DNA of 64,000 nt. Source: Ginglymostoma cirratum (lineage: Eukaryota). A model generated the notes under the pieces. The model was not told where the DNA came from. It saw only the letters and a list, made by a program, of their open reading frames with translations, and ran no database searches. Of the stretch, positions 28,049 through 61,800 are shown one piece after another. How positions within the stretch are numbered: the first letter of the stretch is position 1; each line of letters begins with the position of its first letter. A program made the translations under genes and the position numbers. The DNA is taken from positions 515,579 to 579,578 of the forward strand of contig JAHRHZ010000115.1 in assembly GCA_024137785.1 (NCBI GenBank), given 5' to 3'.

Positions 28049-28843
28049 ATGAATCAATATGCTTGCCACTTTTCTTCATGAAACAGCTTTGGACCTTTTT
28101 TTTGTTCATTTCAGTTACAAAATGATAGAGTCAATGAGATTTAATCAGTGTGGATGGAGATCCTTCAGTGCATCATGTCAATGCCTGTCATCAAATAACC
28201 ATTGTTTCTAACTCCTACTTCCAGCACATGGCCCGTAGCCTCGTGGTCTGATGTTTCAAGTGTTCATCTAAATCGTTCTTCAATGTCTTGAGGTTTTCAG
28301 TGGAACACCAACAACTCCTTCAGGCAGTGATAGGAAATATTGCTGGAACACAAAATTCACGTTTTCTTGCTTAAAGACAGTTCTGAAAGCCCAAGATCTT
28401 TCTCTAAGCCATTTCCTACTTTTGCTGAGGTTGCCAACAATGTGGTTTTAATTCCCTCATTGGCTGAGGTTATCACAAATGGTTGTCCTTCTCAACCTCC
28501 CTGCTCGCCTTGGGTGTGTTATCCCTCAGGTTAAACCACTACCAGTTATATTTCCATAAAGAGAGCAGCCTCATAGTCCAACATGAGTGTGTCGACTTTA
28601 CCTTTTAATAGCAGCTGAACTTTTCCAGCAGCTTTGTTTTGGCTCTTGATTTGCTGTAAATCAAGAGTTCTTTCGTTTTATTTACCTTTTAATAAGTGGC
28701 ACTGTGTCAGAATTTGTGGTATAACATTCCTGGAAAATGCAAGTGACTTTTTATTCTACATTCAATGTATTTTGAATATCAGTTGCCTTTGTAGGAGATA
28801 AATGGAAAGATTGCTTGTACGTAGTGCAAGAAGTAAATTCAAA

Positions 28844-29545
28844 TGAGATAGTAGGAACTGCAGATACTGGAGAATCTGAGATAACAAGGTGTAGAGCTGG
28901 ATGAACACAGCAGGCCAAGCAGCATCAGAGGAGCAGGAAGGCTGACATTTTGGGCTTAGACGCTTCTTTAGAAATGGGGGAGGGGAAGGAGGTTCTGAAA
29001 TAAATAGGGAAAGAGGGGGAGGCAGATAGAAGATGGATAGAGGAGAAAATAGGTGGAGAGGAAACAGACAGGTCAAAGAGGTGGGGGTGGACCCAGTAAA
29101 GGTGAGTGTAGGTGGGGAGGTATGGAGGAGATAGGTCAGTCCAGGGAGGACGGACAGGTCAAGGGGGTGGGATGAGGTTAGTAGGTAGGAGATGGGGGTG
29201 GGGCTTGAGGTGGGAGAAGGGGATAGATGGGAGGAAGGACAGGTTAGGAAGGCAGGGACAAGCTGGGCTGGTTTTGGGACGCGATAGGGGGAGGGGAGAT
29301 TTTGAAGCTTGAGAAGTCCACATTGATACCATTGGGCTGCAGGGTTCCCAAGCGGAATATGAGTTGCTGTTCCTGCAACCTTTGGGTAGCATCATTGTGG
29401 CACTGCAGGAGGCCCAGGATGGACATGTCGTCTGAGGAATGGGAGGGGGAGTTGAAATGGTTCACGACTGGGAGTGCGAACCGAGCGTAGGTGTTCTGAA
29501 AAGCGGTCCCCAAGCCTCTGCTTGGTTTCCCCGATGTAGAGGAAA
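28844..29545 (-). mobile_element. Penelope-like element family 1, 3' part (left arm of inverted composite)
   Basis: FLYIGETKQRLGDRFSEH (GIY-YIG) and a 3' region that is the reverse complement of 29850-30523. Confidence 0.92.
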
Positions 29546-30523
29546 TCATTCTCTGACACTTCCACCATCTGCAATCCGACCCCACCACCAAAGACATTTT
29601 TCCCTCCCCATCCTTATCTGCTTTCCAGAGGGACCACTCTGTCCGTGACTCCCTTGTCCGCTCCACACTCCCCTCCAGCCCCAGCACACCCGGCACTTTT
29701 CCTGCAACTGCAGGAAGTGCTACACCTGTGCCTACACCTCCCCCCTCACCCCCATCCCAGGCCCCAAGAAGACTTTCCACATCAAGCAGATGTTCACCGC
29801 ACATCTGCTAATGTGGTATACTGCATCCGCTGTTCCCGTTGTGTCCTCCCCTACATCGGAGAAACCAAGCAGAGGCTTGGGGACCGCTTTGCAGAACACC
29901 TATGCTCGGTTCGCACTAAACAACTGCACCTCCCAGTCGCGAACCATTTCAACTCCCCTCCCAATCCTCAGACGACATGTCCATCCTGGGCCTCCTGCAG
30001 TGCCACAACGATGCTACCTGAAGGTTGCAGGAACAGCAACTCATATTCCGCTTGGGAACCCTGCAGCCCAATAGTATCAATGTGGACATCACGAGCTTCA
30101 AAATCGCCCTTCCCCCTACCACTCCCAAAACCAGCCCAGCTCGTCCCCGCCTCCCTAACCTGTCCTTCGTCCCACCTATCCCCTTCTCCCACCTCAAGCC
30201 CCACCCCCATTTCCCACCTTCTAACCTCATCCCGCCCCCTTGACCTGTCCGTCCTCCCCGGACTGACCTATCCCCTCCATACCTCCCCACCCACACTCAC
30301 CTTTACCGGGTCCATCCCCACCTCTTTGACCTGTCTGTCTCCTCTCCACCTATCCTCTCCTCTATCCATCTTCTATCCGCCTCCCCCTCTCTTCCTATTT
30401 ATTTCAGAACCCCCTTCCCCTCCCCCATTTCTGAAGAAGGGTCTAGGCCCGAAACGTCAGCCTTCCTGCTCCTCTGATGCTGCTTGGCCTGCTGTGTTCA
30501 TCCAGCTCTACACCTTGTTATCT
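29546..30523 (+). mobile_element. Penelope-like element family 1, 3' part (right arm of inverted composite)
   Basis: NVVYCIRCSRC..YIGETKQRLGDRFAEH with frameshifts; TSD AAGTAAATTCAAA at 28831-28843 and 30524-30536. Confidence 0.92.
30427..30461 (+). ncRNA. Minimal hammerhead ribozyme core
   Basis: CTGAAGA-A-GGGT(CTAG)GCCC-GAAA-CGTC; stem I is weak. Confidence 0.6.
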
Positions 30524-30544
30524 AAGTAAATTCAAACGCTGCAA

Positions 30545-30950
30545 TGGGGGCCGCTGAGCCATCACTCCGAACCCAGGGGATCATCCCCCATCTAGGGAAG
30601 TGAGGATCATTGCGCATGCTCCGTATAATCCGCCGCACGGCCAGTCTGGTGTGGGCGCAATCCCGAAAGTGGTCGTTTTATTTTTCTCGTCTTCATAAAC
30701 AGGTAACAACGAGGCGGAGCGGAGGAGGCGATGGACGGTGCGATTTAATGTATAGGCTTTTCACACACTTTGTGAATGAGGCGGAGCCCGATGAAAGAAA
30801 CCATCTGTCCTTGTTTCACCACACGAGGCTTCCTCACGGCGGACTAGGCCGCGAGTCCCGGCCGCCGTCTTTGTTGGGGGCGAAGGGCAGCCGCGCGCAT
30901 GCGTATTAATCCTCGGGCAGGAGAGAAAATGTGGATCTCTGGGGCTGCAG
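30545..30950 (+). promoter_or_regulatory. CpG-rich promoter/first-exon region of a zinc-finger gene
   Basis: Dense CpG; NRF1-type TGCGCATGCTC (30611) and GCGCGCATGCG (about 30893); candidate donor CAG/GTAACA at about 30702. Confidence 0.6.
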
Positions 30951-32806: not shown

Positions 32807-33163
32807 CATAGATCATAGACCATAGAATCCCTACTGTGTGGAAACAGGCCATTCAGCCTAACTAGTCCATGCCACCCCACCGAAGGGCATCCCACTGCGA
32901 CTCATTCCCCTACCCCTGCATTTCCACATGTGTACCTCACCTAACTTAAACATGCCTGCACACTGCAGGCAATTTTGCATGGCCAATCCACCTAACTTGC
33001 ACATCTTTGGACTGTGGGAGGAAACCGGAGCACCCGGAGGAAACCCATGCAGACATGGGGAGAATGTGCAAACTCCACACAGACAGTCGCCTAAGGGTAG
33101 AACCTAACCTGGGTCCCTCGTGCTGTGAGGCAGCATTGCTAACCATTGAGTCACTGTGCCGCA
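32807..33163 (-). mobile_element. HE1 SINE (V-SINE)
   Basis: tRNA head, V domain GTGTGGAGTTTGCACATTCTCCCC..CCTCCCACAGTCCAAAG, CR1-type tail. Confidence 0.9.
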
Positions 33164-35000
33164 TCTGGGGTGGAACACATTAGCGTTGTGATTTGCTGGC
33201 GAACATGCAGCCCTCCGCTCCCTCCGCTCCAATCCCAACCTCACCATAAAACCCGCGGACAAGGGAGGGGCAGTCGTAGTATGGCGCACTGACCTCTACT
33301 TTGCTGAGGCCAGGCGCCAACTCTCTGACACCTCCTCCTACCGCCCCCTAGATCATGACCCCTCCCCCGAGCACCAAACCATCATCTCCCAAACCATGCA
33401 CAACTTCATCATCTCAGGTGACCTCCCACCCACCGCCTCCAACCTCATCATTCCCCAACCCCGCACCGCCCGCTTCTATCTCCTCCCCAAAATCCACAAA
33501 CCTGAATGCCCCGGTCGACCCATTGTCTCCGCCTGCTCCTGCCCCACCGAACTCATCTCCACCTACCTAGACTCCATTTTCACCCCCTTGGTCCAGGAAC
33601 TTCCTACCTACGTCCGTGACACCACCCACGCCCTCCGCCTCCTCCAGAACTTCCAATTCCCCGGTCCCCAACACCTCATTTTTACTATGGACATCCAGTC
33701 CCTATACACCTGTATTCCCCATGCTGATGGCCTAAAGGTCATCCGCTTAGCCGAACTCGTCCTCACCCTCAACAACTTTTCTTTCAATTCCTCCCACTTC
33801 CTACAGACAAAGGGGGTGGCCATGGGTACCCGCATGGGCCCAAGCTATGCCTGCCTCTTTGTAGGTTATATGGAACAATCCCTCTTCCGTACCTACACTG
33901 GCCCTAAACCCCACCTCTTCCTCCGTTACATTGATGACTGCATCGGCGCCGCCTCGTGCTCCCACGAAGAGCTCGAACAGTTCATCCACTTCACCAACAC
34001 CTTCCACCCCAACCTGAAGTTCACCTGGACCATCTCCAACACTTCTCTCTCCTTCCTGGACCTCTCTGTCTCCATCTCGGGCAACCACCTAGAGACAGAT
34101 GTCCATTTCAAGCCCACTGACTCCCACAGCTACCTGGAATACATTTCCTCCCACCCACCCTCCTGCAAAAATGCCATCCCCTATTCCCAATTCCTTCGCC
34201 TCCGCCGCATCTGCTCCCAGGATGAGACATTCCACCCCCGTACATCTCAAATGTCCTCATTCTTCAAGGACCGCAACTTCCCCCCCACAGTGGTCAAGAA
34301 CGCCCTTGACCGTGTCTCCCGCATTTCCCGGAACACATCCCTCACGCCCCGTCCCCACAATAATAACCAAAAAAGAATCCCCCTCGTCCTCACATACCAC
34401 CCCACCAACCTCCGGATCCAACGCATCATCCTCCGACACTTCCGCCATCTGCAATCAGACCCCACCACCGAAGACATTTTTCCCTCCCCACCCTTATCTG
34501 CCTTCCGGAGGGACCACTCCCTCCGCGACTCCCTTGTCCGCTCCACACTCCCCTCCAGCCCCACCACAGCCGGCACTTTTCCTTGTAACCGCAGGAAGTG
34601 CTACACCTGCCCCCACACCTCCTCCCTCACCCCAATCCCAGGCCCCAAGAAGACGTTCCACATCAGGCAGATGTTCACCTGCACATCTGCCAATGTGGTA
34701 TACTGCATCCGCTGTACCCGTTGTGGCTTCCTCTACATCGGGGAAACCAAGCGGAGGCTTGGGGACCGCTTTGCAGAACACCTGCGCTCAGTTCGCAACA
34801 AACAACTGCACCTCCCAGTCGCGAACCATTTCAACTCCCTCTCCCATTCCTCAGATGACATGTCCATCCTGGGCCTCCTGCAATGCTGCAGTGATGCCAC
34901 CCGAAGGCTGCAGGAACAGCAAATCATATTCAGCCTGGGAACCCTGCAGCCCAATGGCATCAATGTGGATTTCACAAGCTTCAAAATCTCCCCTCCCCCA

Positions 35001-35400
35001 NNNNNNNNNNNNNNNNNNNNNNNNNNNNNNNNNNNNNNNNNNNNNNNNNNNNNNNNNNNNNNNNNNNNNNNNNNNNNNNNNNNNNNNNNNNNNNNNNNNN
35101 NNNNNNNNNNNNNNNNNNNNNNNNNNNNNNNNNNNNNNNNNNNNNNNNNNNNNNNNNNNNNNNNNNNNNNNNNNNNNNNNNNNNNNNNNNNNNNNNNNNN
35201 NNNNNNNNNNNNNNNNNNNNNNNNNNNNNNNNNNNNNNNNNNNNNNNNNNNNNNNNNNNNNNNNNNNNNNNNNNNNNNNNNNNNNNNNNNNNNNNNNNNN
35301 NNNNNNNNNNNNNNNNNNNNNNNNNNNNNNNNNNNNNNNNNNNNNNNNNNNNNNNNNNNNNNNNNNNNNNNNNNNNNNNNNNNNNNNNNNNNNNNNNNNN
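35001..35400. other. Assembly gap
   Basis: Run of N. Confidence 1.
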
Positions 35401-35502
35401 CTTTACTGGCTCCATCCCCGCCTCTTCGACTCGTCTGCCTCCTCTCCTCTATCCGCCTCCCCCTCTCTCCCTATTTATTTCAGAACCCTCTTCCCCTCCC
35501 CC

Positions 35503-35538
35503 ATTTCTGATGAAGGGTTTAGGCCCGAAACGTCAAGT
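35503..35538 (+). ncRNA. Minimal hammerhead ribozyme
   Basis: ATTT-CTGATGA-A-GGGT(TTAG)GCCC-GAAA-CGTC-AAGT: core, 4-bp stem II, palindromic ACGT in place of stem III, 4-bp stem I. Confidence 0.75.
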
Positions 35539-36403
35539 TTTCCTGCTCCTATGATGCTGCTTGACCTGCTGTGTTCATCCAGCCCCATGCTTCTACTGGT
35601 CAACTTATGGGGTGTCAAAGTGTCACCATGCCCACACAGGTACAGGTTCCACCCCCGAAATCATCATAATGCTGGAAATTGACCTTTGAGAAACAATTGA
35701 GGACTGGAAGCATTCTGTCAGATTGAACCCTCCTTTTCTGTCCAACATCTATGAGCAAAATCCTTTCTTTTAGCTTCCTTTCTGTTTCCTTTTTTTTCCA
35801 TTCTGTGGTAAAATTATTGACTTGTAGAAACTGAAGGGAAGTAAGTGAACTTAGGCAGGGTGCAGAGTCTGTACAGGACAGGAAATAGTGACCTTGGATC
35901 TGTTTATCAGTACCTTCAGGAGAACGGGGAGGGTATATATTAGGGACAGCAGAGTGAGCATTGTGGGAGAATGTGGGAGGAGAGAGAGGAAAAAGCTATC
36001 CCAGAGGAAACTAGAATCCTCTGTTCTGAATTTTTAACTTATACTTATTCCTTTTACAGGATGCTAGAAGGTGAAGATTTGCAGACAGAAATCACAAAAC
36101 AAACATCATGTGCGGATAGTGATTAAATTAAGCAGAACTTGAATAACCATTGATGGAGAAATGTCCATTTGTTCTGTCTGCATCGAAGGTTTTAAAATCA
36201 GTTTGACTAGAAAAGCCCTGTGACACACCCTCTTACCCCAAGTAAGAGTCTTCCAGTGAACCAACTCTGGAAAAAACTTTAATCGGCGACGCAGCCTAAA
36301 TAGCATCAGACCATTCACAGCAGGGAGACACCATACCCACGCTCCGTGTGGATGAGGCTTCAGCTGATTATTGAACACTCAGAGACACAGCAACACCAAT
36401 AAC

Positions 36404-36994
36404 ATGGAGAAACCATGGAAGTGTGATGACTGTGGGAAGGGATTTCATTCGCTGTCAACACTAGAATTTCATCGACGTGGTCACAGCAGGGAGAGGCCAT
36501 TGACATGCTCTGAATGTGGAAAGGAATTCCCTAATTCGTCTGCTCTTCGGAAACATCAACGTGCTGCCACTGGAGAGAGGCCTTTTGCCTGTTCCGAGTG
36601 CGGGAAGAAATTCAGGGAATATTTCACCTTGTTGAGACACCAGCGAGCCCACACTGGGGAGAACCCATCCACCTGCTCGGAGTGTGGGAAGGTATTCACT
36701 CAGTTGTCCAGCTTGCGTGCACACCTGCGAGTTCACTCCGGGGAGAGACCATTTAGCTGTTCTGATTGTGGAAAGGAATTCATTCAATTATCACATCTGA
36801 GGAAACATGAGCAAATTCACACTGGGGAGAGACCATTCAAGTGCTCCAACTGTGGGAAACGATTCAGGGATTCATCTGGCCTACAGGTACACCAGCGAGT
36901 TCATACTGGGGAGAGGCCATTCATCTGTTCCGAGTGTGGGAAAGGATTCATTCAGTCATCACATCTGCGGAAGCATAAGCAAATTCACAAGTGA
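36404..36994 (+). CDS. C2H2 zinc-finger protein, 196 aa, 7 fingers (finger 2 lacks its last His)
   Basis: ATG in AACATGG context, MEKPWKC start, TGERP linkers; acceptor TTTTACAG at about 36059. Confidence 0.8.
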   Translation: MEKPWKCDDCGKGFHSLSTLEFHRRGHSRERPLTCSECGKEFPNSSALRKHQRAATGERPFACSECGKKFREYFTLLRHQRAHTGENPSTCSECGKVFTQLSSLRAHLRVHSGERPFSCSDCGKEFIQLSHLRKHEQIHTGERPFKCSNCGKRFRDSSGLQVHQRVHTGERPFICSECGKGFIQSSHLRKHKQIHK

Positions 36995-38083: not shown

Positions 38084-39215
38084 GAGTAGGCTTCAGCCAA
38101 TCATCAGACTCCACAAACCACAAATGCAGTCACACTGGGCAGAAACAGTGGAAACGTGTGGATTGTGGGGACGAATTTGTTTTCCCATCTGAGCTGGAAA
38201 CACATTGCAGACGCACCAGTAGCAGTCCATCTACCTACTCAGTATGTGGGAAGGAGTTCCCTCAGTGATCTAACCTGCTGCAACAGCAACTCGGTCACGC
38301 TGAGGAGAGATTATTTCAATGTCTGGACTGCTGGAAGTACTGTAAAAGTCCCAGGAGGCTGCTGTGCCATCAATGTGTTCACACTGCAGACAGATCTTTT
38401 AAATATCCAGACTGTCAAAAATGCTATGAAACATCCAGGGACGTGGAGTCCCACCAATTTGCTGACACGGAGGAGAGACCTTTTAAATGCTCAAACTGTG
38501 TAAACTGCTTTAAAATCTCCAGGAACCTGATGTCCAATCAACTCGTTCACATTAATGAGAGACCTTTTAAATTTCCAGATTGTGGGAAATGCTACAAACC
38601 TTCCAGGACCTGATATCCCACCATGTTCACTCTGAGGAGAGACCGTTCATGTGCTGTCTCTGTGGGACTAAGTTCAGGCGACCATCTGAACTCATGGAGC
38701 ACCAACAGGTACACACTGGGGAGAGACTGTTCTGCTCCAGGTATGGGAGGGGATTTACTCGGTCATCCAACCTACTGAGACACCAGCCTGTTCACATTGG
38801 GAGAGTTTTTTTTGGGGAACTGCAATTACAAGCTCCTGGGGACTGACTTATCAATGTGTTCACACTGAGGAGAAACCTTTTAAATGCTCAGACTGTGGGA
38901 ATCACTATACAAGTTCCTGGGGACTGTTTTATCATCAGTGTGTTCACACTGAGGAGAGACCTTTCAAATGTCTAATCTGTGGGAAGTGTTATTGAATTTC
39001 TGTGGAACTGACGTCCCATCAACGTGTTCACATGACGACAGACCTTTCAGGTGCTTTCATTGTGGGACTGTTTTCAGGCGATTATCCCAACTCTCAGGAC
39101 CAGCGAGTTCACACTTGGGAGAAACAATTCACCTGCGCTGTGTGTAAAAAAAAAAAAAAAGTTAGCTCACTCATCCACCTTGCTGAGACAGCAGAGAGAT
39201 CACACATCTCAACAG
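37916..39215 (+). pseudogene. C2H2 zinc-finger pseudogene (more than 10 degenerate fingers)
   Basis: Repeated HTEERPFKC/HTGER units with stops and frameshifts; AATAAA at 39285. Confidence 0.9.
38053..38080. repeat. (GT)14 microsatellite inside a finger CxxC
   Basis: Direct inspection. Confidence 0.95.
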
Positions 39216-39554: not shown

Positions 39555-39877
39555 GAGCGGCATGGTGGCACAATGGTTAGCACTGCTGCCTCACAGCACC
39601 AGGGACCTGGGTTCAATTCCAGCCTTAGGCGACCATCCGTATGGAGTTTGCACATTCTCCCTGTGTCTGCATGGGTTTCCTCCAGGTGCTTCGGTTTCCT
39701 CCCACAGTCCAAATATGTGCAGGTTAGGTGGATTGGCTGTGCTAAATTGCCTGTAGTGCTCAGGGAGGTGTAGATTAGGTGGGTTATAGGGGGATGGGTC
39801 TGGGTGGGTGTTTTCAGGTTCAATGTGGACTTGTTGGGCCGAAGGGCCTGTTTCCACACTGTAGGGATTCTATGATT
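39555..39877 (+). mobile_element. HE1 SINE
   Basis: Full head, V domain, tail ending GGGATTCTATGA. Confidence 0.92.
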
Positions 39878-40574: not shown

Positions 40575-41640
40575 CTTTCCATTTGGAAAATGTTCAATGC
40601 CTCGTTTCTTCTGACCAAAGTACAGAATCTTAGTTGCCCATATTGTATTCCATTGGACACTTCTTTGCCTATTCTCCTAGCCTGTCTAAGTCATTCTGCA
40701 GCTCCTTCATTCCTCAAAACTAGCTGTCTCTCCACCTATCTGTGTGTCATTTGAAAGCCTAGCTACAATGCTTCAGTTCTTTTAGCAACTTCTTAAATGT
40801 ATATTGTGAATAGTTGTGGTCCCAACAAATGACCCCTACAAAACCCCACTAGTCACGAACTACTATCCTGAAAAAGATTCCTTCATGCCCACTCTTCTGC
40901 CAGTCATCTAATTGTTTAGAGATAAAATGTTGTGGAGCTGGATGAACACAGCAGGCCAAGCAGCATCAGAGGAGCAGGAAAGCTGATGTTTCCGGTCGAG
41001 ACCCTCCTTCGGAAATGGGGGAGGGGAAGGGGATTCTGAAATAAATAGGGAGAGAGGGGGAGGCGGATAGAAGATGGATGAAGGAGAAGATAGGTTGAGA
41101 GGAGACACAGAGGTCAAAGAGGCGGGGTTAGAGCCAGTGAAGGTGAATGTAGGTGGGGATTTAGGTGGAGGAGAAGTCAGTCCAGGGAGGACGGACAGGT
41201 CAAAGAGGCGGGATGAGGTTAGTGGGTAGGAGATGGGGGTGGGGCTTGTGGTGGGAGGAATGGATAGGGAGGTGGGGACTAGCTGGGCTGGTTTTGGGAT
41301 GTGGTCGGGGCAGGGGAGATTTTGAAGCTTGTGAAGTCCATATTGATACCCTTGGACTGCAAGGTTCCCAAGTGAAATATGAGATGCTGTTCCTGCAGCT
41401 TTCGGGTGGCATCATTGTGGCATTGCAGGAGGCCCAGGATGGATGTGTCGTCCGAGGAGTGGCGGGGGGCTGAGTTGAAATGGTTCGCAACTGGGAGGTG
41501 TAGTTGTTTGTTGCGAACTGAGCGTAGGTATTCCGCAAAGCGGTCCCCAAGCCTCTGCTTGGTTTCCCCGATGTAATTGTTTATCCTTGACTGAACTTGC
41601 CCCTAACACCATGGGCTTTTATATTCTTTAGCAGCCTGAA
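40575..41640 (-). mobile_element. CR1 RT fragment split by a Penelope insertion
   Basis: CR1 RT sequence is colinear on both sides of 40919-41573. Confidence 0.65.
40919..41573 (-). mobile_element. Penelope-like element family 1, 3' fragment with decayed hammerhead (about 40985-41012)
   Basis: Matches 28880-29540; 10-bp TSD TAATTGTTTA at 40909-40918 and 41574-41583. Confidence 0.9.
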
Positions 41641-43600: not shown

Positions 43601-44793
43601 TGTGAATGTATTTGTGCCCCCTGCTGGTACAAGGAGGTGAGCGTGGACCTGAAGGAGTTGGAGCTTTTGACCTGGGAGGTCCTCTATGTCCTGTGCGGCT
43701 ACGAGGGCCCCGGGGATGGAGCTCCCATGCCACCCACCCAGGGCGGCCATCCCACGGCGCCTGGGCCTGCGGCTGATCGACCCTGAGGGGCGGTGTGGTT
43801 CGCCAGCCCTGGGGATCGGGCCCTGACAGGGGGTTGCAGCGGCGGCGAGGGGAGCGCCTGGACCCACAACCCACCTTTGGTCCGCAACAGCTCCTGGAAG
43901 AGCAGCTTCAAACTGGAAAGTTCTGGAAAAGTGGCAGGGGCCTGTAGGTGTTCGGGATACGTTCTCTGATGTACCTGGGGCTGTCCTGACCCAGACCCGG
44001 GCCCGCCCCATCCAGACACGGAACCTGTTTTGCCTGGCTGATCGACCTGGTGAGGCGGCGCGGCAGTGCCTTCAAGCTCCCTCCGCCCAGGCTCTGGAAA
44101 CCTGGGACAGTCGGAGGTGAGGCCTGCCCTCATTTTGTGGCTATTCTCACTTTTTCTAACTTCCTCCCCATGCTTTCTCCACAAATCCACCCCCCCCCCC
44201 CCCCCCGCCCAACATACTCCACCGATCCCTGTCCACTGGCGGAGACTGCTTTTACAACTTGGCACTCATCCGGCGTGGTTGCCCTGAAGGAGTGGTACGC
44301 CTTCCACTACGTGAACCTTATGACACGTATCTCCCTCGATGCATCACCCTTGGACGAGGCGAAGATGGGAGAGTTCGTCCAGGATTGTCGGTTCAATGGC
44401 TTCGTCTGTAGGGAGACGTGAAGGAGAGGAGAGAGAAAGAAAGAATCAGAGGTGAGGGAATGAGAGAGATAGAAAGAGAGAGACAAAGAAGAGGTGAGGG
44501 AGAGAATGAGAGAGAGACGGGGAGTGTGGAGAGAGGGGGTGGGGACGGAGAAGAGAGAATGACAGAGACAGAGAGTGAGGAATATCACTGATCTCTCCGT
44601 CTCTGTCTCTCTCAAATTCCAGTTTCGACACGTCCTTTCACCATCCGGTTGATGGAAACTATTACACCTTCTTGGGATTAACAGCAGCTCCAAGTAGGAA
44701 TCCTCCAAGGCTGCAAAAGACCGCCATGAGTGAAAACTGAGAATAAAGCTCTCTCTTCAATGATCCCCATTAAACACGCCCATGTCAGGGACA

Positions 44794-44887
44794 AAAACAA
44801 AGTTGCTGGAAAAGCTCAGCAGGTCTGGCAGCATCTGTGGAGGAGAAAACAGAGTTCACGTTTTGGGTCTGGTGCCCCTTCCTCAGA
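44794..44887 (-). mobile_element. 94-bp Penelope-type mini-insertion (family 3) starting at a decayed hammerhead core
   Basis: Minus strand TCTGAGGA-AGGG..CCC-AAAACGTGA; TSD TCAGGGACA at 44785-44793 and 44888-44896. Confidence 0.75.
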
Positions 44888-45580
44888 TCAGGGACAGCAC
44901 AGGGTTCGATACCGAGTAAAGCTCTCTCTACACTGTCCCCCATCAAACACTCTGAGGACATGGACAGCATGGGGTTAGATACGAAGTAAAGCTCACTCTT
45001 CTCACTCTGTCTTTGTGATGCCCAGGTCTGTCCCTTGTGCTCAGGATCGAACAGAACAATTCCATTCCCTTCTTGTCGATGGCGGCTGGAGCCCGGATGA
45101 TGGTTCATAAAGGGGCTCGCTCCCCCTTCGTGGAGGACGGTGGCTTTGATTTTCACCCAGGACTGGAGACCTCTATCAGCATGAGAAAGGTGAGGGAGGG
45201 AGAGAAGGAGCCCCCCATCTCTTCCATCACCGGCCACTGCCTCACACTCTCCCTTCCTGTCTCTCTCACCTCCTCTAGCCCGTACACCCCTCCTATCTCT
45301 GTAGCCTTCTCCTACCCTTACACCCCTCCCTATCCCCATCTCTAGCTCTCTCACTGTCTCACTCTGCCCCCATTCCAGGAGGTTGTGTCTCACCTCCAGA
45401 GGGCCGTACAGTGACTGCATGGAGAACAACTCTGAGATCCGAGTTGTAACCTCTACAAATCCGACTACACCCAGCAGATAACTGGGCTGCAGTGCTGCCG
45501 GCTCACCTCTGTCTGTGGAGTTCTGGTGATCAGTGGGGAGCAGACCAGATATAATGTGCCCAAGCCTTTGCGAAGCCTGC

Positions 45581-46000
45581 AGGCCTCAGGCTTTCGGCCT
45601 GTTGTTGAAATTTGGCATTATTAGTCCTCAGACTTTTCAGCCTGTTGCCGAAATTGCCATTGCTAGGCCTCAGACTCTGAGGGCTTGTTGCTAAGGTTTG
45701 TGTTCCTAAGTCTCATCTCCTGGGCCCGTTGCAAAGGTTGGCCTCCCTAGGCCTTAGGCTCCTGGGCCGGTTGCTGATGTTTTCCTCCCTAGGCCTTAGG
45801 GTTTCTGGTCTTTTGCTAAGGTTGACATTCCTCAGCCTCAGGCTCCCAGGCCTATTGCTGAAGTTCATGCATCTAGGCCTCAGCCTCTGGAGCCTATTGC
45901 TAAGGTTGGCATTCCTAGGCCTTAGGCTCTTGGGTTTGTTGCTAATGTTCACATTTCTAGGCCTCCGGTTCTCCAGCCTGTTCCTCAGGTTCCTAGTCCT
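45581..46000. repeat. 42-bp minisatellite, about 10 units
   Basis: AGGCCT-like anchor recurs at 45581, 45623, 45665, 45708, 45749, 45791, 45833, 45875, 45917, 45959. Confidence 0.92.
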
Positions 46001-46892: not shown

Positions 46893-47335
46893 ATTCTCTC
46901 TCCCCACCTCTCTCTCTCTCTATCCCCTCTCTCTCTCTTTCTCACCCCCCCTCTCTCTCTCACTCTCTCCCCTCTCTGCCCCCTCCTCCCCACCTCTGTC
47001 TCCCTGCCTCTCTCTCTCCTCCTCTCTCTCTCTCCCCCACCTCTCTCCCTCCCCTCTCTCTGCCCCCTCTCTCTCTCCCCCCTCCCTTCTCTCTCTCTCG
47101 CCCCCTCTCTCTCTCCCCCTCTTTTTTTCTCTCTCTCTCACACACGCTCACATTCTCGCTCTCTCTCCTTCTCTCACTCTTTCTCTCCTTCTCTCACTCT
47201 CTCTCTCACTATGTCACATACTCTCTCACAGACACTCCCGCACTCTATCTCACCCACGCATGCTCTGTCGATGATGTTGTGTTCTTCTCTTTTTCTCTCC
47301 CCCTCTCGGCCTCTCCTTCCGCTCTCCCTCTCCTA
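46893..47335. repeat. Polypyrimidine (CT-rich) low-complexity tract; similar tracts at about 42960-43170 and 44420-44615
   Basis: Direct inspection. Confidence 0.9.
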
Positions 47336-47914: not shown

Positions 47915-48436
47915 TTCCTTCATTCATTTGATTTCTGTGAACTCTTCCTTACTGTCCTGTTTTGACAGCATTGCCTTGATAAATTGTTTTGATCCCTCTA
48001 CTTTAATTAGTTTGTACAGTTTTGAATTATTTATTTCTTTGGTTAGACCCTCGGCATGTGACTCATACCTGTCATGTTAGTCTAGTCATTTAGTTTATCT
48101 CCACCACCACCTTTTTATTTGTAATTATCTCTCCACCTCACACTTAGATTATAGGTCATACCTTCACTGGTTATTCAGCTGTTGACACTTTACTCACAAT
48201 CTAACATTCTTGGCCACCTAAAGAGACTTATCATCTGACAATCCACTCACACCAGTTGTGTAATCTTTTGATCTCTCTGCCTACAAACTCTGGGTCTGTG
48301 TGCTCTCACTACTCATGATGAAGTGACTGCACTCTGAAAGCTTGCATGATTTCAAATAAACCTGTTGGACTATAACCTGGTGTCCTACGACTTCTGACTT
48401 TGTCCACCCCAGTCCAACACCAGCACTTCCACATCA
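47915..48436 (+). mobile_element. Penelope-like family 2, 3' region with decayed hammerhead (about 48315-48343)
   Basis: ATGATGAAG..CTCTGAAAGCTT followed by TAAACCTGTTGGACTATAACCTGGTG..CCAGTCCAACAC, repeated at about 48775-48870. Confidence 0.6.
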
Positions 48437-48511
48437 TTATATGTTCTCCAGTTACCATCAAACGTGTACTTAACATTTGATAAAATTAACAGCTACAGTC
48501 AGGGCTACTCA

Positions 48512-48670
<159 letters not shown>

Positions 48671-48747
48671 TCAATCACTTCATTCATTTCACAGTATGAT
48701 AGGGTCACCTGTAGTGTAACATGAAAGCAAGATCATGGTTGAGGCCA

Positions 48748-48878
48748 TCTTCACTGCACCTCAAGATGGTGCGCTCTGAAAGTTTGTGATTTCACGTAAA
48801 CCTGTTGGACTATAACCTGGTGTCATGTGACTTCTGACTTTATCCACCCCAGTCCAACACTGGCACCTCCCTATCAAA
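48748..48878 (+). mobile_element. 131-bp Penelope-type mini-insertion (family 2)
   Basis: Direct repeat of about 48310-48436; candidate TSD GAGGCCA at 48741-48747 and 48879-48885. Confidence 0.65.
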
Positions 48879-49239
48879 GAGGCCAGTGATGCAGAAGGGA
48901 CACAATGGGGGATCAGGCTAATTTGAATCGAGTAATGTAACATGCTTAATAAATTACATCAGGGTAGAACATCCCCCAGTGACCATCAAATGGTGTCCTG
49001 AACAGTACTGTGGGTGGGTTGCCAATGTGGAGAGTAATAGTATTCGACAAACTAAGGGGTTAAATTCAGATCAAGCCCCCAGCTCTGTTTCTAAAGTAAG
49101 TACCTGCAGAGATTCTGCATCGGTTGTAATTCTACAAACAACCCGGGATTGTGGATAATTCTCAGCGGATTCCAAAACTGCCAATGTCACAGTTTATTCA
49201 AGAAGGGAGCAAAACTCCTGGAATTTGAGAAACCAGCTG

Positions 49240-49900: not shown

Positions 49901-50393
49901 GCTATATGTTGAGCAGGACGTAAGTTTAGCTATCTTGCTAATCCAAGAGTGGGCTAAAGAAATGAATTCAACCACGTTAGACGTGGAGAATACTCGGGGT
50001 GAAGGAAAGGATGGACCCAGGACTTTGGATTTCAGCTCAGGGACGACGGTGTTTTGCGGGATTGGTGACTTACTCTTTTGATGAACAATACAGTTTCCAT
50101 ACAAATTGGAATTCTTGGTTTTGAATTGCTCTCCTATGCTTTTGGTGGACAGTTTTGTGAACGTCTTTCCCAAGGTTTTTTTTAGGAGTTCTCAGTATCA
50201 TGGGTCTTTGAATGCACCAGGGGAAATGTTTGTCTGTGCTGACCTGGCTGTAACATTTCACCCATCAGTGTGAGATGTGAAAAGAGCTTTAAACAGTCAC
50301 AAAACCTCATAACAAACATTACACTATTCAAAGCAGGAGAAACTCTTCAAGTGTTCTGTTCACAACCTAGAGAAACACAAGGACACATGTGCC

Positions 50394-51824
50394 ATGGAAA
50401 AACCATGGAAATGTGAGGAATGTGGTAAAGGATTTGATTACCCGTCCCTGCTGGAAAACCATCGACGTTATCACACTGGAGAGAAGCCGTTTATTTGTTC
50501 TGTATGTGGGAAGGCATTTACTCAGTCATCTGGCCTTTGGTCACACCAGCGAGTTCACACTGAGGAAAAGCTGTTCAGCTGCACTTCCTGTGGAAAGAGA
50601 TTCAGGCATTCTTCTGCCCTTACTGTGCACCAACGCACTCACAACGGAGAAAAACCATTCACCTGCTCTGAGTGTGGAAAGGGATTCACTCATTTATCCA
50701 CCCTGCAGGCACACCAGCGAGTCCACACTGGGGAGAAGCCATTCACCTGCTCAGAGTGTGGGAAGGATTTCACTCAGTTGTCCACCCTCCAGATACACCA
50801 GCGAGTTCACACTGAGGAGAAGCTGTTCAGCTGCACATCCTGTGGAAGGAGGTTCAGGCATTCTTCTGCCCTCACTGTGCATCAACGCACTCACACTGGG
50901 GAGAGGCCGTTCACCTGCTCTGACTGTGGGAAGAAATTCACTCAGTCCTTTCATCTTCAGGCACATCAGCGCATTCATACAGGGGAGAGACCTTTCTCCT
51001 GCTCTGTGTGTGGGAAGGGATTCATTGTTTTACCCACTCTGCTGAGACACCAGCGAATTCACACAGATGAGAGGCCTTTTAAATGCCCCGATTGTGAGAA
51101 GGGTTTTAAAAGTTCCCAGGAGCTGACGCTCCATCAACGTATTCACACCAATGAGAGGCCGTTCAGGTGCTCTCACTGTGGGGCTGGATTCAGGAGATCA
51201 TCTGACCTCATTCTCCACCAACGAATTCACACTGGGGAGAGGCCATTCACCTGCTCCGAGTGTGGAAAGGGATTCACTCGGACAGCCAATCTTCTGAAAC
51301 ACCAGCGATTTCACACTGAGGAAAGACCATTCAGCTGCTCAGAGTGTGGGAAAGGATTTACTCAGTCCTCCACCCTGCTGACACACCAGCAAGTTCACAC
51401 CACTGAAAGGCCTTTCAAATGTCCAGACTGTGGGAAGTGCTTTAAAATTTCCGGGGAGCTGATGCGCCATCAACGTGTTCATACTGACGAGAGACCATTC
51501 AGGTGCTCTCACTGCGGGACTGGCTTCAAACAATCATCTCAACTCAGTATGCACCAGAGAATTCACACTGGAGAGAGGCCCTTCACCTGTTCCGAGTGTG
51601 GGAAGGGGTTCACTCGATCATCCCATCTGATGATGCACCAGCAGATTCACACTGGAGAAAGGCCTTTCATATGCTCCACGTGTGAAAAGAAATTCACTCA
51701 CTTATCCAACCTGCGGAGACACCAGCGAGTTCACACAGGGGAGAAGCCATTCGCCTGCTCCGAGTGTGGGAAAGGATTCACTCGGTCATCTAACCTGCTG
51801 GCCCACCAGCGAGTTCATGAGTAA
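50394..51824 (+). CDS. C2H2 zinc-finger protein, 476 aa, 17 intact fingers, no effector domain in this ORF
   Basis: Kozak GCCATGG, MEKPWKC start, 17 C-x2-C-x12-H-x3-H units with TGE(K/R)P-type linkers. Confidence 0.93.
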
Positions 51825-52296: not shown

Positions 52297-52519
52297 GGGT
52301 GGCACAGTGACTCAGTGATTAGTCCTGTTGTTTCAAAGCACCAGGGAACTTGGTTCAATTCCACCCTCAGGCAACTGTCTGTGTGGAGTTTGTACATTCT
52401 CCCTGTGTCTGCGTGAGTTTCCTCCCACAGTCCAAAGTTGTGCAGGTTAGATGGATTGGCCATGCTAATCTCAGGGTTACACGGGTAGGGGTGGATCTGG
52501 GTGCGACGTTCTTCAGAGG
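52297..52519 (+). mobile_element. HE1 SINE running into a gap
   Basis: Head and V domain. Confidence 0.85.
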
Positions 52520-52919
52520 NNNNNNNNNNNNNNNNNNNNNNNNNNNNNNNNNNNNNNNNNNNNNNNNNNNNNNNNNNNNNNNNNNNNNNNNNNNNNNNNN
52601 NNNNNNNNNNNNNNNNNNNNNNNNNNNNNNNNNNNNNNNNNNNNNNNNNNNNNNNNNNNNNNNNNNNNNNNNNNNNNNNNNNNNNNNNNNNNNNNNNNNN
52701 NNNNNNNNNNNNNNNNNNNNNNNNNNNNNNNNNNNNNNNNNNNNNNNNNNNNNNNNNNNNNNNNNNNNNNNNNNNNNNNNNNNNNNNNNNNNNNNNNNNN
52801 NNNNNNNNNNNNNNNNNNNNNNNNNNNNNNNNNNNNNNNNNNNNNNNNNNNNNNNNNNNNNNNNNNNNNNNNNNNNNNNNNNNNNNNNNNNNNNNNNNNN
52901 NNNNNNNNNNNNNNNNNNN
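52520..52919. other. Assembly gap
   Basis: Run of N. Confidence 1.
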
Positions 52920-52994
52920 CCGAAACGTCAGCTTTCCTGCTCCTATGATGCTGCTTGGCCTGCTGTATTCATCCAGCTCTACACCTTGTTATCC
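52920..52994 (+). mobile_element. Penelope family 1, 3' end (hammerhead cut by the gap)
   Basis: CCGAAACGTCAGC..CCTTGTTATC. Confidence 0.85.
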
Positions 52995-53147
52995 CAGTCA
53001 CTTGTCAATTCTTTTGGAAGTTCAACACTGTCCTGCTCACAGTTTACACTGATTCAAAACTTGGAAACATTCACAAAATTTAATGTTGACCCTTGCACAT
53101 CAATGTCTAAATCATTTATGTGTATGTCAGGAAAAGCAAAGCATTTT

Positions 53148-53488
53148 CATTGAATCCCTACAGTGTGGAAACAGGCTATTTGGCCTAACAAGTTCACACC
53201 AAAACTCCGAAGAGCATCCCACCCAGACTCAAACCCCTCCACTCTATCTCTGTAGCCCTGCATTTCCCATGGCTAATTCACCTAACATACATGTTCCTGG
53301 ACACTGTGAGCAATTTAGCATGGCCAGTCTACCTCATCTGCACATCGTTGGACTGTGGAGGAAAGAGGAGCCCCCAGACGAAACCCTCGCAGATACAGGG
53401 AGAAAGTGCAAACTCCATACAGACAGTCGACCAAGGCTGAAATCAAACTCGGGTCCCTGGTGCTGTGAGGCAGCATTGCTGACCACTA
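53148..53488 (-). mobile_element. HE1 SINE
   Basis: Reverse complement of the HE1 copies at 39555 and 56014. Confidence 0.88.
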
Positions 53489-54613: not shown

Positions 54614-55338
54614 AGTTAAGAGGCTATGGCACTGGGTATGTGCAAACAGTTGAGTTGACTTGAAGTCTGAAGGCATCAGTATGACCAAAATTCTCTGATG
54701 CTCCTGATTAGCTGAATGCTGTGGTTCTGAACAACACAGAGAGAAGCCTCCAGGTTGCAGAAATGAGTATCATCCTTGCTCGCGCGCTCTCTGTAGTGAA
54801 GTAATCAAAGTTTGGAAGACAGCAAGAGATTATCTCCCGCCAGCTGCTGTGAACAGTTGCCTCTACTAATAATCAAAAGATTTGACAATTAGCGTGCTAA
54901 CTACCCTGTGTCTTTTGTGAAGAGCTGAATGTATGTGTAAGTCAGGAGATGGGAGAATAAAAGGTTTTGGAAAACAGAAAGAACAATTGGGGGGTGGCAT
55001 GGAGCGGGGGGAGTTCAGAGTTTGAACTATTAAGAGTTGTGTGTTGGTAATTCATATTTTTTCTGATGAAGGGTTTAGGCCCGAAACGTCAAGTTTTCCT
55101 GCTCCTATGATGCTGCTTGACCTGCTGTGTTCATCCAGCCCCATGCTTGTTATCTCATATTTGTGTTTGCCAATGGTTAGGAATGATCTATTTGCAATAA
55201 AGACCAGTTGTTATGAAGTACAGAAACCTGGTCAGTGTTTTCAGTTTATATTTTATATATAAATCTTTATATTTGGCGGTGCCCCTAGAGAGTAGTGGGG
55301 CTCAAGTATCAGGGCACTTTCCCAATTGGGTCATGACA
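54614..55338 (+). mobile_element. Possible LTR relic
   Basis: Preceded by purine tract AGTGGGGGAAGAGAG, internal AATAAA at about 55196, ends GGGTCATGACA; 5' TG is not intact. Confidence 0.3.
55060..55154 (+). mobile_element. 95-bp Penelope family 1 mini-insertion starting at an intact hammerhead core (55063-55090)
   Basis: Nearly identical to 35504-35589; TSD TCATATTT at 55052-55059 and 55155-55162. Confidence 0.88.
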
Positions 55339-56013: not shown

Positions 56014-56330
56014 GGGTGGCACGGTGGCTCAGTGGTTAGCACTGCTGCCTCACAGCACCAGAGACCCGGGTTCGATTCCAGCCTTGGGCGACTGTGTGGA
56101 GTTTGCACATTCTCCCCGTGTCTGTGTGGATTTCCTCCGGGTGCTCTGGTTTCCCCCACAGTCCAAAGATGTGCAGGTTAGGTTGATTGGCCATGCTAAA
56201 TTGCCCGTAGTGTTCAGGGAGGTGTAGATTAGGTGGGTTGTAGGGTGTTGTGTCTGGGTGGGATGGTCTGAGGTTTGGTGTGGACTTGTTGGGCCAAAGG
56301 GCCTGTTTCCACACTGTAGGGATTCTATGA
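56014..56330 (+). mobile_element. HE1 SINE, young full-length copy
   Basis: Intact A box TGGCTCAGTGG and B box GGTTCGATTCC. Confidence 0.95.
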
Positions 56331-57620: not shown

Positions 57621-59435
57621 GGGTATTCACGGGTTGGACATCCAGAAGCTGCAACAAGTCATCACATCAAAATCAGACAGAGTCATTCAGTTCATCAGAT
57701 TCTGAATACCATCAGCCTCTGAATGCGGAGAGAGAAATGCTTGTCTGTGAGAAAAGATTTTAAACATGAGTGTGACTGCAAAAGCACCAAGACACACACC
57801 CAAGGGAAAGTGTTCCAGTGAACTGACCGTGGTAAGAGCATTAACCAGTTATACAGCCTGAAAAATAATGACACCATCCACAACAGGGAGAGACCATTCA
57901 TGTGTTTTGTCTGTGCAAATCAGTTTCATTCAATCATTGAACCTGGAAAGAATCAAGAACACTGACACCATGGAGAAACTGTGGAAATGTGGGGTGTGTG
58001 GGAAGGGATTCAGTTACCCATCAGGGTTGGAAACTCATCAACACAGTTACACTGGGGAGAGGCCTTTCAGCTGCTTCGTGTTTGGGAAGCAATTCACTCA
58101 GTCATCCAGCCTCTACACATACCAGCATGTTCACACGGGGGAGAGGCCAATTCTCCATGTATGTACAGAAATTGAACGCTTTATCAACCCTCCGGATGCT
58201 TGAGCAGGTTCACTCCGATGCAAGATCGTTTAAATGTTCTGATTGTGAGAAGAGTTTTAAAAGCAGAAAGGATACATTGATACGTCAATGCAGTCACACT
58301 GGGGAGAGACCATTGACCTGCAAAGTGTGTGGGAAAGGATTCACTCAGTCATCCCACCTCCTGACACATCAACTTGTTCACACTGATGAGAGACCTGTTA
58401 AATGTTCTGACTGTGAGAAGAGCCTTTAGGTGTAAAAAGGGTTTACTGAACCACCATTGCACTCTGACTGGAGAGAGACCGTTCATCTGCTCTGTGTGTG
58501 GGTAGGGATTTACTCGTTCATCCTACCTTCTGACACATCAATTTGTTCACACTGTTGAGAGACTTTCTGGATGTCATGACTGTGAGAAAAAGATTTAAAT
58601 GTGGAAAACATCTTCTTAAACACCAGTACACTTACACAGGGGAGAGGCTATTCTTCTGCTCTGCCTGTGGGAAAGGATTCACTCGAATATCTCACTTGCT
58701 GAGACACCAGTGAGTTCTCACTGGGGTGAGGCCATGCTCCTGTGCTAAGTGAGAACAGGAATTTGTCGATTTATCCAATCTCTGATCCACCAGCGAGTTC
58801 ACACTGGGGAGAGGCCACACTCCCCACAAATGATGGGGAGATGATGGCCTAGTGGTGTTATCACTGGACTGTTAATCCAGAGACCCAGACAACGTTCTGG
58901 GGAAGTGGGTTTGAATCCTGCCTCAGCAGATGGTGGAATTTGAATTCAATTAAAAAATATCTGGAAATAAGAATCTAATGATGACCATGAATCCATTGCT
59001 GATTGTCAGAAAAAAACCCACCTGGTTTGCTAATGTCCTTTAGGGAAGAAAACTGCCATCCTTACCCATTCTGGCCTACACGTGACTCCAGACCCGCAGC
59101 ACTGTGTTTGACTCTTAACTGCCCTCTGGGCAATTAGGATTGGCAATAAATGCTGCGGTTAGTGACGCCCTCATCCCATTAATGAATAAAGAAAAAAAAA
59201 CCTGCTCCCTGTGTGGCAAGAGATTCATTCACTCGTCCCACCTCACCACACACCAATTTGTTCATGCTGATGACAGACTTTTTAATGTTCTGACTGCGAG
59301 AAGAGGTTTAAAAGTAAACAGAATCAGCTGAAAGGTCAACAAATTCACACTGGGGAGGTACCTTTCGTCTTCTCCATGTGTGGGAAAGGTTTCGCTCAGT
59401 CACACTACCTCCTGAAACACCAGCAACTTCACTTG
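57621..59435 (+). pseudogene. C2H2 zinc-finger pseudogene (MEKLWKC start at 57970) with a SINE insertion
   Basis: Many HTGERP fingers with frameshifts and stops, resuming at 59201 after the SINE. Confidence 0.9.
58835..59200 (+). mobile_element. tRNA-derived SINE, full length (family name not assigned)
   Basis: A box TGGCCTAGTGG, B box GGTTTGAATCC, body CCTTTAGGGAAGAAAACTGCCATCCTTACC, tail GGCAATAAATGCTG, A tract. Confidence 0.9.
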
Positions 59436-59564
59436 CGAAAGCAGCAATTGGATTCTGCTGTTATTGCTGCTGTAAACTGCATTCAGGACTGAACCTTGTC
59501 TGGCAATCCGTTTCCAGTGAGTTTCCACAGTTTTGTGTATATAATCAAGGATTTGAACTTCAAT

Positions 59565-60002: not shown

Positions 60003-60282
60003 TCATGGAATAATAGAATCCCCTACATGGATGCAGGCCATTCAGCCCATGAATCCACACTGACCCTGTGAAGAGCAGCCCACCCAGCCCCAATTCCATA
60101 CCCTCTCCCTTCAAGCCTTATCCCTGTCTGCATTTTCCATGGCGAATCCAACAAGCCTGAGCGTCACAGACACGGGGAGAATGTGCAAACTCCACACAAA
60201 CAATCACCCGAGGGTGGAATCGAACCTGGGTCCCTGGTGCTGGTAGGCAGCAGTGTTAACCAAAAAGTCACTGCGCTACCCC
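60003..60282 (-). mobile_element. HE1 SINE with internal deletion
   Basis: Head with GGTTCGATTCC and partial V domain. Confidence 0.8.
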
Positions 60283-60626: not shown

Positions 60627-61235
60627 AGAGTCACAGCACAGAAACAGGCCCTTCGACCAGGTTTACTAAGCTGATCTAGTCCCATTTGCCTGTGTTTCCT
60701 TATATCCCTCTGTCACTTTCCTATCCATGTACTTGTCCAAATGTCTTTTAAATTACCTCTACCAATTATTCTGGCAGCTCGTTCCATATACGCACCACCG
60801 TCTGAGTGAAAAAGTTGCCCCTTGGGACCCTATTAAAGCTTTCCCCTCTCACCATAAACCCATGCTCTCCTGTTCTGATCTTATCTACAATGGAAAAAAA
60901 AAGACCATTGCTATTCATCTCATCTCTGTCTGTAATGATTTTACAAATCTCCGTGATGTCATCCCTCAGTCTCCTCTACTCCAGGCTTGTCCAGCTTCTC
61001 CTTATAACTCAAATCTTCCAGTCTCGGCAACATCTTGGTAAATCTTTTTTGTGCCCTTTCCAGTTTAATAACATCTTTCCTACACCAGGGTGACCGGAAT
61101 TTTGTGTGCAGTACTCCAAATATGGCCTCACCAATATCTTGTATAGCTGTAACATGATGCTCCAATTCCTGTACTCACTGCTCTGACCAACAAAGGCAAG
61201 CATGCCAAATGCCTTCGTCATCAGCCTGTCAACCT
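60627..61235 (-). mobile_element. CR1/HER1 3' fragment
   Basis: KAFGMLAF..LYKILVRPYLEYC. Confidence 0.85.
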
Positions 61236-61239
61236 TTGA

Positions 61240-61800
61240 CACCAGGGACACAATTCTTGTAACTGATGAGAACACACATTTGACCACAGCTAATGAACTG
61301 CACTCAGTTCTGGTCCCCATACTCCAGGAACGATCTGACCCAGAGACGCTACAGACAAGATTGATCAGGATGTTTCCAGGATTGGAGAATGTCAGCTCTG
61401 AGGAAAGATTGGACAAGCTGGGATTGTTTTCTGTGAAACAGAGGAGACTGAGGTGAGGTTTCATTGAAATGATAAAATTATGGAGTCCAGATTGAGTGGA
61501 TAGGAAGGAACTATTCATTAATAGAGAGGTCAGTAACTCAAGGACTTCAATTTAAAACAATTCACAGAAAGAGGGGGAGGGGAGAAATCCAGAGTTGGTA
61601 GGGTGCTGGAACTCTTTGTCTGGTAGCATGTTAGAGGCAGAAACCCTCATCATTGTTAAAATGAAAGGACATGGATGCACTTGAAATGCTGGAACATACA
61701 GGTTATGGAATAAGATCCACAGAGTGGGAAGAGCCTGAATAGCTCTGTTTCAGCCTACACAAACAGGATGGGCCAAGTGGCCTCAATCTGTGCTGTAACA
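61240..61800 (+). mobile_element. Older CR1 3' fragment
   Basis: RMFPGLENVSSEERLDKLGLFS. Confidence 0.8.

Follow-up and report, generated by a model that had tools for sequence, protein, structure and literature searches.

Penelope-like terminal modules with a preferred 5' start beside a minimal hammerhead core in a carpet-shark-like genomic window

A base-precise preferred 5' start is real in at least one family of short insertions found in the window, by which we mean the whole 64,000-nucleotide stretch of DNA analysed here. The start lies three nucleotides before a hammerhead core, which is a preferred start and not the sole one. In our leading reading, which we rate as about equally likely to be right or wrong, the short insertions (mini-elements) are TSD-flanked terminal modules of Penelope-like elements (PLEs), and the shared start marks the template RNA's 5' end, with RT priming internally and running off. 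The element class itself is known. The original prediction of ribozyme-headed mini-elements had missed that these are the terminal module of PLEs, of which the window also contains several longer copies.

Results and discussion

Mini-elements, their duplications and their hammerhead motifs

Mini-element A (55060..55154, plus strand; 95 bp) starts at TTT, 3 nt before CUGAUGA, and ends without a tail at the main 3' end of its family. It is flanked by an 8-bp TSD, TCATATTT, at 55052-55059 and 55155-55162. Mini-element B (44794..44887, minus strand; 94 bp) starts 1 nt before CUGAGGA between 9-bp TSDs (44785-44793 and 44888-44896), and mini-element C (48748..48878, plus strand; 131 bp), whose degenerate core (CUCAAGA at 48760) lies 12 nt after its start, sits between copies of a candidate 7-bp TSD, GAGGCCA (48741-48747 and 48879-48885). 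The three insertions were all found where they had been predicted; distances of 3, 1 and 10 nt to CUGANGA had been given, and the first two agree with ours whereas the third is 12. Chance repeats were assessed on 4,000 random pairs of positions 94-131 bp apart, counting any repeat at least as long. At ±3 nt slack the frequency was 0.13% for 8 bp and 0.05% for 9 bp; for 7 bp it was 2.3% at ±6 nt and 7.2% at ±12 nt. The TSDs of A and B are therefore beyond chance, and that of C is suggestive only.

Read against the features given in the available part of PMC4209133, positions 55060..55093 of mini A (plus strand) appear to form a minimal type I hammerhead. In helix I, UUU (55060-62) pairs with AAG (55091-93); CUGAUGA (55063-69) is followed by an unpaired A, then by stem II (55071-82), which is present in the predicted fold, GAAA (55083-86), an ACGU palindrome and CGUC, with the predicted cut after 55090. 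Helix I of the mini hammerheads is 2-4 bp long and helix III is absent, which sets them apart from the canonical type I hammerhead. At the gathering score, Rfam gave no hammerhead match in the whole window, and at 54900-55300 no hammerhead was found up to an E-value of 10, where only chance snoRNA matches appeared. Judged by its letters, the core seems intact in mini A and in the family-A copies at 30431 and 35507, and damaged in B, in C and in two other A copies. Mini B has AAAA in place of GAAA and GUG at the cut triplet, and mini C combines the CUCAAGA core with a broken stem II; the term "ribozyme-headed" thus suits A, but neither B nor C.

Although three different families had been proposed, A and B are homologous along their whole length (68% over 98 nt, E 2e-8) and therefore are not independent cases; the sequence of C is unrelated to both. 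A second family-C copy (48304..48437, plus strand) is 86% identical to mini C over 109 nt, and it has no TSD near its core, T-rich sequence running on upstream. No RT-bearing partner of B or C was seen in the window. B is tied to the PLEs by its homology to family A, and C is grouped with them by resemblance only.

The first 89 nt of mini A (55060-55148) match 35504-35592 at 89 of 89 positions, a stretch in which a longer Penelope-like copy ends, whereas with the other A copies they agree at 73-78 of about 90 nt. Because the identity is to the 3' end of a long copy that lies beside an RT and GIY-YIG frame, mini A probably represents no separate lineage, a comparison that involves one mini and an N gap beside which collapse of repeats could have produced the 89/89 match. 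The pieces 1-35, 35504-35592 and 55060-55148 point to a young, perhaps very young, subfamily, with assembly collapse as the alternative. Compared with the remaining A copies, they have in common one extra nucleotide behind the cut site and one missing nucleotide close to the 3' end. Mini A stands singly, with no tandem array in the window, and none of the three minis is tandem.

Longer copies and a Penelope-like partner

A 5'-truncated Penelope-like frame at 33192..35000 (plus strand) runs for about 600 codons without a stop and encodes an RT followed by a GIY-YIG endonuclease (Pfam RVT_1, E 3e-6; GIY-YIG, E 2.2e-4; both slightly below the curated cut-offs). It is 72-89% identical to carpet-shark proteins and about 50% identical to many proteins of 800-950 aa. 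By the labels of its protein matches, the long retroelement frame is 89% identical to whale shark, 87% to zebra shark and 75% to bamboo shark proteins, and this range of 75-89% is why we consider the window carpet-shark-like.

The 3' end of a long family-A copy (35401..35592, plus strand), whose last 89 nt are those of mini A, follows a 400-N gap and is tied to the frame by scaffolding across that gap. The family-A module terminates four other long arms in the window, and one of them, 29545-30523, provides a gap-free connection between the endonuclease region and the terminal module. Two family-A 3' ends form a head-to-head inverted pair (28844..30523, both strands; 1.68 kb) with a 13-bp TSD, AAGTAAATTCAAA, at 28831-43 and 30524-36, and a tail of about 35 nt on the left arm only (28844-28878). 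Such an arrangement, with TSD and one-arm tail, is described for PLEs in the available parts of PMC8557442 and PMC3846280. Given the RT and GIY-YIG partner, the inverted pair with its TSD and the one-arm tail, family A is by all sequence indications the terminal module of an endonuclease-positive (EN+) PLE. The EN+ characters found are thus the RT and GIY-YIG partner (for family A), a minimal hammerhead in the terminal repeat, an optional 30-40-nt tail and an inverted adjoining copy with a TSD. The label "Poseidon type" is suggested by the domain order and by a module layout resembling PAc.

Several copies start elsewhere. An ordinary 5'-truncated family-A insertion (40919..41573, minus strand; 655 bp) has a 10-bp TSD, TAATTGTTTA, at 40909-18 and 41574-83. 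In family B, a 70-bp insertion (28611..28680, plus strand) with a 14-bp TSD, TTTACCTTTTAATA, has a tail-like extension and no hammerhead; it begins about 60 nt downstream of the start of mini B, past the hammerhead, and is a counter-example to a start at the core. Another family-A 3' end (52920..52996, plus strand) has lost its 5' side in an N gap, and an old, weak remnant of the A/B module lies at 4382-4442 (minus strand; nhmmer E 0.004). Among the A-family ends in the window with a visible 5' side, one of five starts at the core and the other four reach from at least 100 to about 890 nt upstream, a count that leaves out two more ends cut by an N gap or by the window edge. One of the two clear B copies starts at the core.

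A single-base 5' junction peak in public contigs

Public sequences were placed at 80% likeness on a reference, 30011-30610, taken from the right arm of the inverted pair, with 420 nt of sequence ahead of the core. Of the 24 public runs listed, four were placed on it: two contig runs (X3 and X15) and two raw-read runs (X20 and X21), the latter contributing 0 reads. X3 yielded 96,895 placed contigs and 6,835 partly placed ones, and X15 yielded 253,540 and 28,104. Loose ends before position 30428 occurred in 381 of the 6,835 partly placed contigs of X3 and in 1,416 of the 28,104 of X15. Position 30428, where TTTCTGA begins, lies 3 nt before the core and corresponds to the base at which mini A starts. 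In both runs the peak exceeds a flat spread about 36-fold (10.5 and 39.5 contigs expected per base), for which all other partly placed contigs were taken as 5' ends distributed evenly over 510 positions. These are counts of contigs, not copies, and cover family A; about 81% of X3 was read, part of the X15 ends fall outside the count, and T-rich or T-ending flanks can shift ends from -2..0 to -3. The breakpoint peak that had been proposed as a check is thus present in family A, and the claim that 5' ends stop at the core rather than at random is supported by these contigs, but the window also holds TSD-flanked copies that start elsewhere.

The loose letters at 30428 are long (median 214 nt in X3 and 255 nt in X15), mutually unlike (agreement 0.35) and A-rich. 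Junctions at this base amount to 0.26 (X3) and 0.18 (X15) of the listed 3' ends; the main 3' end in contigs lies at 30520-30523, and the loose letters behind 30523 start with the letters of the tail. The other listed 5' places, 30123, 30395 and 30463 (102-481 contigs), have short, element-like loose letters and are alignment breaks. Among the 12 loose-end entries listed of 1,354, no junction was found at the ribozyme cut site (after 30458) or at TTTCAG, a splice acceptor-like motif 24 nt upstream of the core. Summed contig depth rises across the core from 7.1M to 14.9M in X3 and from 3.6M to 9.6M in X15, a step that is weak evidence because upstream bins differ more than 10-fold.

Eight of the 15 joints listed (of 259) fall at 30426-30430 and are inverted or head-to-tail. 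Head-to-head inversions join 30426-30430 to 30463 or 30486-87, and opposite-strand joints are also present. Head-to-tail units of 94-97 nt occur in 1-35 contigs per joint, few compared with the 381 and 1,416 junctions into other sequence. Tandems of such units could supply a dimeric hammerhead.

Motif scans for further copies gave 0 and 31 hits in metagenome contigs, 3 in genome contigs and 0 in viral contigs; on reading the flanks, none of these 34 loci carried the flanking sequence of the element. A protein search with one frame of the module found five short gene models with no RT domains. In three of these five spurious models, the module appears to be joined to unrelated residues at the FL-K codons that start at this TTT.

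Proposed origin of the fixed start

In the run-off reading that we favour, the RT/GIY-YIG protein would nick an AT-rich site, and RT would prime internally about 95 nt into the element RNA, or about 130 nt where the tail is included, and run off the RNA 5' end, leaving an insert of fixed size that is probably a dead end. As transcription of PLEs begins in the terminal module of a partial copy lying upstream, the mRNA would carry the module at its front and its back, and priming at the front copy would yield the 95- or 130-nt insert. The RNA would begin at -3, through transcription start or trimming; minis would derive from the upstream module copy and long copies from the downstream one, and B and C would behave like A. 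In line with such an origin, the boundary motif of family A, CCCATTT, resembles a vertebrate initiator. The reading predicts an RNA 5' end at -3 and full-length copies that start at the same base.

Biochemical work on a lizard Poseidon element, as far as the available text of PMC11167929 reports it, provides the background to this proposal. The protein primes RT internally at +111-118 and at a second site, just downstream of the hammerhead; the interval between the two priming sites equals the tail, and product length follows the RNA 5' end. Mutating the hammerhead leaves insertion normal, and none of the RNA reads stops where the ribozyme would cut; the sole reconstituted PLE inserts without self-cleavage. 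The PLE promoter is described as TATA-less and internal, with its start site in the pLTR (PMC2377424 and PMC8557442, both in part). In family A the cut lies 31 nt inside mini A, with no junction there among the loose ends listed, and self-cleavage was rejected as the source of the 5' end because it would remove those first 31 nt. A 5' peak that is precise to the base and leaves the motif whole counts, from within the genome, against templates whose ends are set by cleavage.

Other observations do not fit the run-off reading well. Mini A lacks an extra 5' G, and in Drosophila virilis Penelope the transcription start is separated from the hammerhead by about 120 nt (46 nt and an intron of 75 nt that ends at helix I), in contrast to the 3 nt of the shark family. 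We also considered module plus tail as a protein N-terminus; no frame beat its shuffles (82, 102 and 212 of 300; versus 30 full-length homologues), and in the subfamily of mini A a stop lies in the frame from the CUG-AUG-A codon.

A more detailed version, in which we have somewhat less than even confidence, treats the minis as strong-stop products. Front priming would copy the first 95-130 nt, and inserts of this kind, each with a TSD, would accumulate in very large numbers; the hammerhead, left uncut at the transcript 5' end, would be part of the internal promoter or a protein-loading signal and not a template cutter, and the genome would map the RNA start to the base. If true, this would explain the abundance of single minimal hammerheads in vertebrate genomes and would provide a source of short units that could give rise to tandem retrozymes.

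Alternative explanations

The boundary could instead be set in DNA, with the endonuclease cutting new element DNA at A^TTT or with the T-run serving as the preferred microhomology when T-rich target ends are joined. The boundary does separate A from TTT in CCCATTT to the base, 5'-ATT-3' is the site favoured by the lizard protein, which also cuts its own pLTR (PMC11167929, in part), and head-to-tail joints from 30523 to 30428 (10 and 33 contigs) fit insertion into an older copy. Against it, two ATT motifs 25-30 nt upstream (CTATTTATTTC) have no listed junction into unrelated flank, the boundary of family C has no ATT, and the three T's of mini A itself come in addition to the three T's of its TSD, which argues against in-register annealing; we consider a DNA-set boundary unlikely. 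It had been suggested originally that the ribozyme fold determines where reverse transcription ends, and a folded, protein-bound hammerhead might act either by stalling RT or by letting nucleases trim the RNA only as far as the foot of helix I. The 5' strand of this helix, where UUU pairs with AAG, falls at the start; three copies start at -3, -1 and -12, and the lizard protein binds the region that holds the hammerhead and assists its folding (available part of PMC11167929). RT meets the structure from its 3' side, however, and at -3 has already passed the whole motif, which is an argument and not a test of pausing; helix I has only 2-4 bp, and the minis fold no more stably than shuffles (z -0.37, 0.04 and -1.56). 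Because the motif is already copied at -3 and there is no fold stability beyond that of shuffles, a fold-induced RT stop is unlikely and this part of the prediction finds little support. The trimming version and a transcription start would leave the same RNA end, to be told apart by a cap, and taken together we find a boundary set by the fold unlikely.

The prediction had also offered independent, retrozyme-like elements, and a self-propagating non-autonomous lineage, retrozyme- or SINE-like, could spread from master minis or small circles by using the PLE protein in trans. Fixed ends, high numbers and the head-to-tail joints of 94-97-nt units would suit such a lineage, and in a 2026 preprint, in its available part, animal retrozymes are traced back to the pLTRs of PLEs, with monomers and units described from 51 bp upwards (bioRxiv 10.64898/2026.07.22.740005). 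The minis do not stand apart from the long copies, by the identity of mini A, a sample of one, to a long PLE copy end and its lower match to the other A copies; mini A is single, its ends are not at the cut site, and the mini lacks the RNA beyond the priming site (to +172) on which the lizard protein depends (PMC11167929, in part). A lineage of its own is unlikely, and in this form the prediction is not supported. Finally, ordinary smooth 5' truncation could be combined with detection bias if alignments break at the edge of a motif common to families that differ upstream of it. Among PLE products, short copies are the most frequent (PMC8557442, in its available part), the window holds both long copies and copies that start downstream, and the loose-end entries listed are 12 of 1,354. 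The letters at 30428 nevertheless differ from the element's own upstream sequence, which is C/T-rich, and from the short, element-like letters of alignment breaks elsewhere, and inversion joints as well as the TSD-bounded mini A make use of this base too. We regard this explanation as very improbable and retain run-off at an RNA 5' end as the preferred one.

Comparison with known systems

Much of what is seen here is already in print: PLE repeats that carry minimal hammerheads, single copies that are dispersed, solo pLTRs, also with minimal hammerheads, as well as tails, inversions and retrozymes from pLTRs. The shark elements are like the EN+ Penelope/Poseidon PLEs, as far as the available text of PMC3846280, PMC8557442 and PMC11167929 describes them, in the RT and C-terminal GIY-YIG partner, the terminal-module hammerhead, the optional 30-40-nt tail, head-to-head inverted copies, AT-rich targets, heavy 5' truncation and TSDs of 8-14 bp. 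In the same sources truncation is variable, and solo pLTRs lack TSDs or frame captured DNA, whereas the shark minis are TSD-flanked and show a single-base 5' peak 3 nt before the core. A sharp 5' peak at the core was not found in the PLE, hammerhead and retrozyme literature, Repbase and subscription papers being outside the scope of the search; Fig. S2 of the partly available PMC11167929 (lizard genomic coverage) may show or contradict one.

The hammerhead of mini A also resembles the minimal type I hammerheads of metazoan PLEs (Cervera and de la Pena 2014, PMC4209133, in its available part) in CUGANGA, the unpaired base before G10.1-C11.1, the palindromic ACGU replacing helix III and the short helix I. 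Those motifs are mostly dispersed and single, and are called "probably related to truncated PLEs". The available text proposes RNA ends defined by cleavage and contains no 5'-end mapping of dispersed copies; the shark ends lie 31 nt before the cut.

Like animal non-LTR retrozymes (PMC7229834 and bioRxiv 10.64898/2026.07.22.740005, both in part), the minis are short and non-coding, carry a type I hammerhead, are kin to PLE pLTRs and occur as dispersed monomers with TSDs of more than 4 bp. Retrozymes are defined by tandem units, and the 2020 paper describes canonical hammerheads and circular RNA (PMC7229834, in its available part); the shark minis, in contrast, are single, their cores are minimal or damaged, and they match a long PLE copy at its end. 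The data do not support a retrozyme reading.

Setting of the window

The window is animal DNA with clusters of C2H2 zinc fingers and three N gaps of 383-400 nt (2517-2899, 35001-35400 and 52520-52919), two of them inside or at PLE copies. Zinc-finger arrays with an 84-bp period lie at 36368-36994, 38130-39150, 50313-51824 and 57941-59450; the array at 50313-51824 is an open frame of 503 aa, and those at about 38-39 kb and 58-59 kb look decayed. Scans for bacterial promoters and for tRNAs were both empty and are uninformative. A dispersed repeat family of about 230 bp, with copies 75-85% alike (32933-33162, 39557-39786, 52301-52468, 53253-53485, 56018-56235 and 60167-60276), resembles what we take to be shark HE1/V-SINE. 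The minus-strand frame 61009-61551 resembles, we assume, a fragment of a CR1-type LINE. A degenerate 42-bp tandem array occupies 45581-45991, and a long CT-rich microsatellite 46894-47229. Directly after the inverted PLE pair, a GC- and CpG-rich, promoter-like stretch extends from 30524 to 30850.
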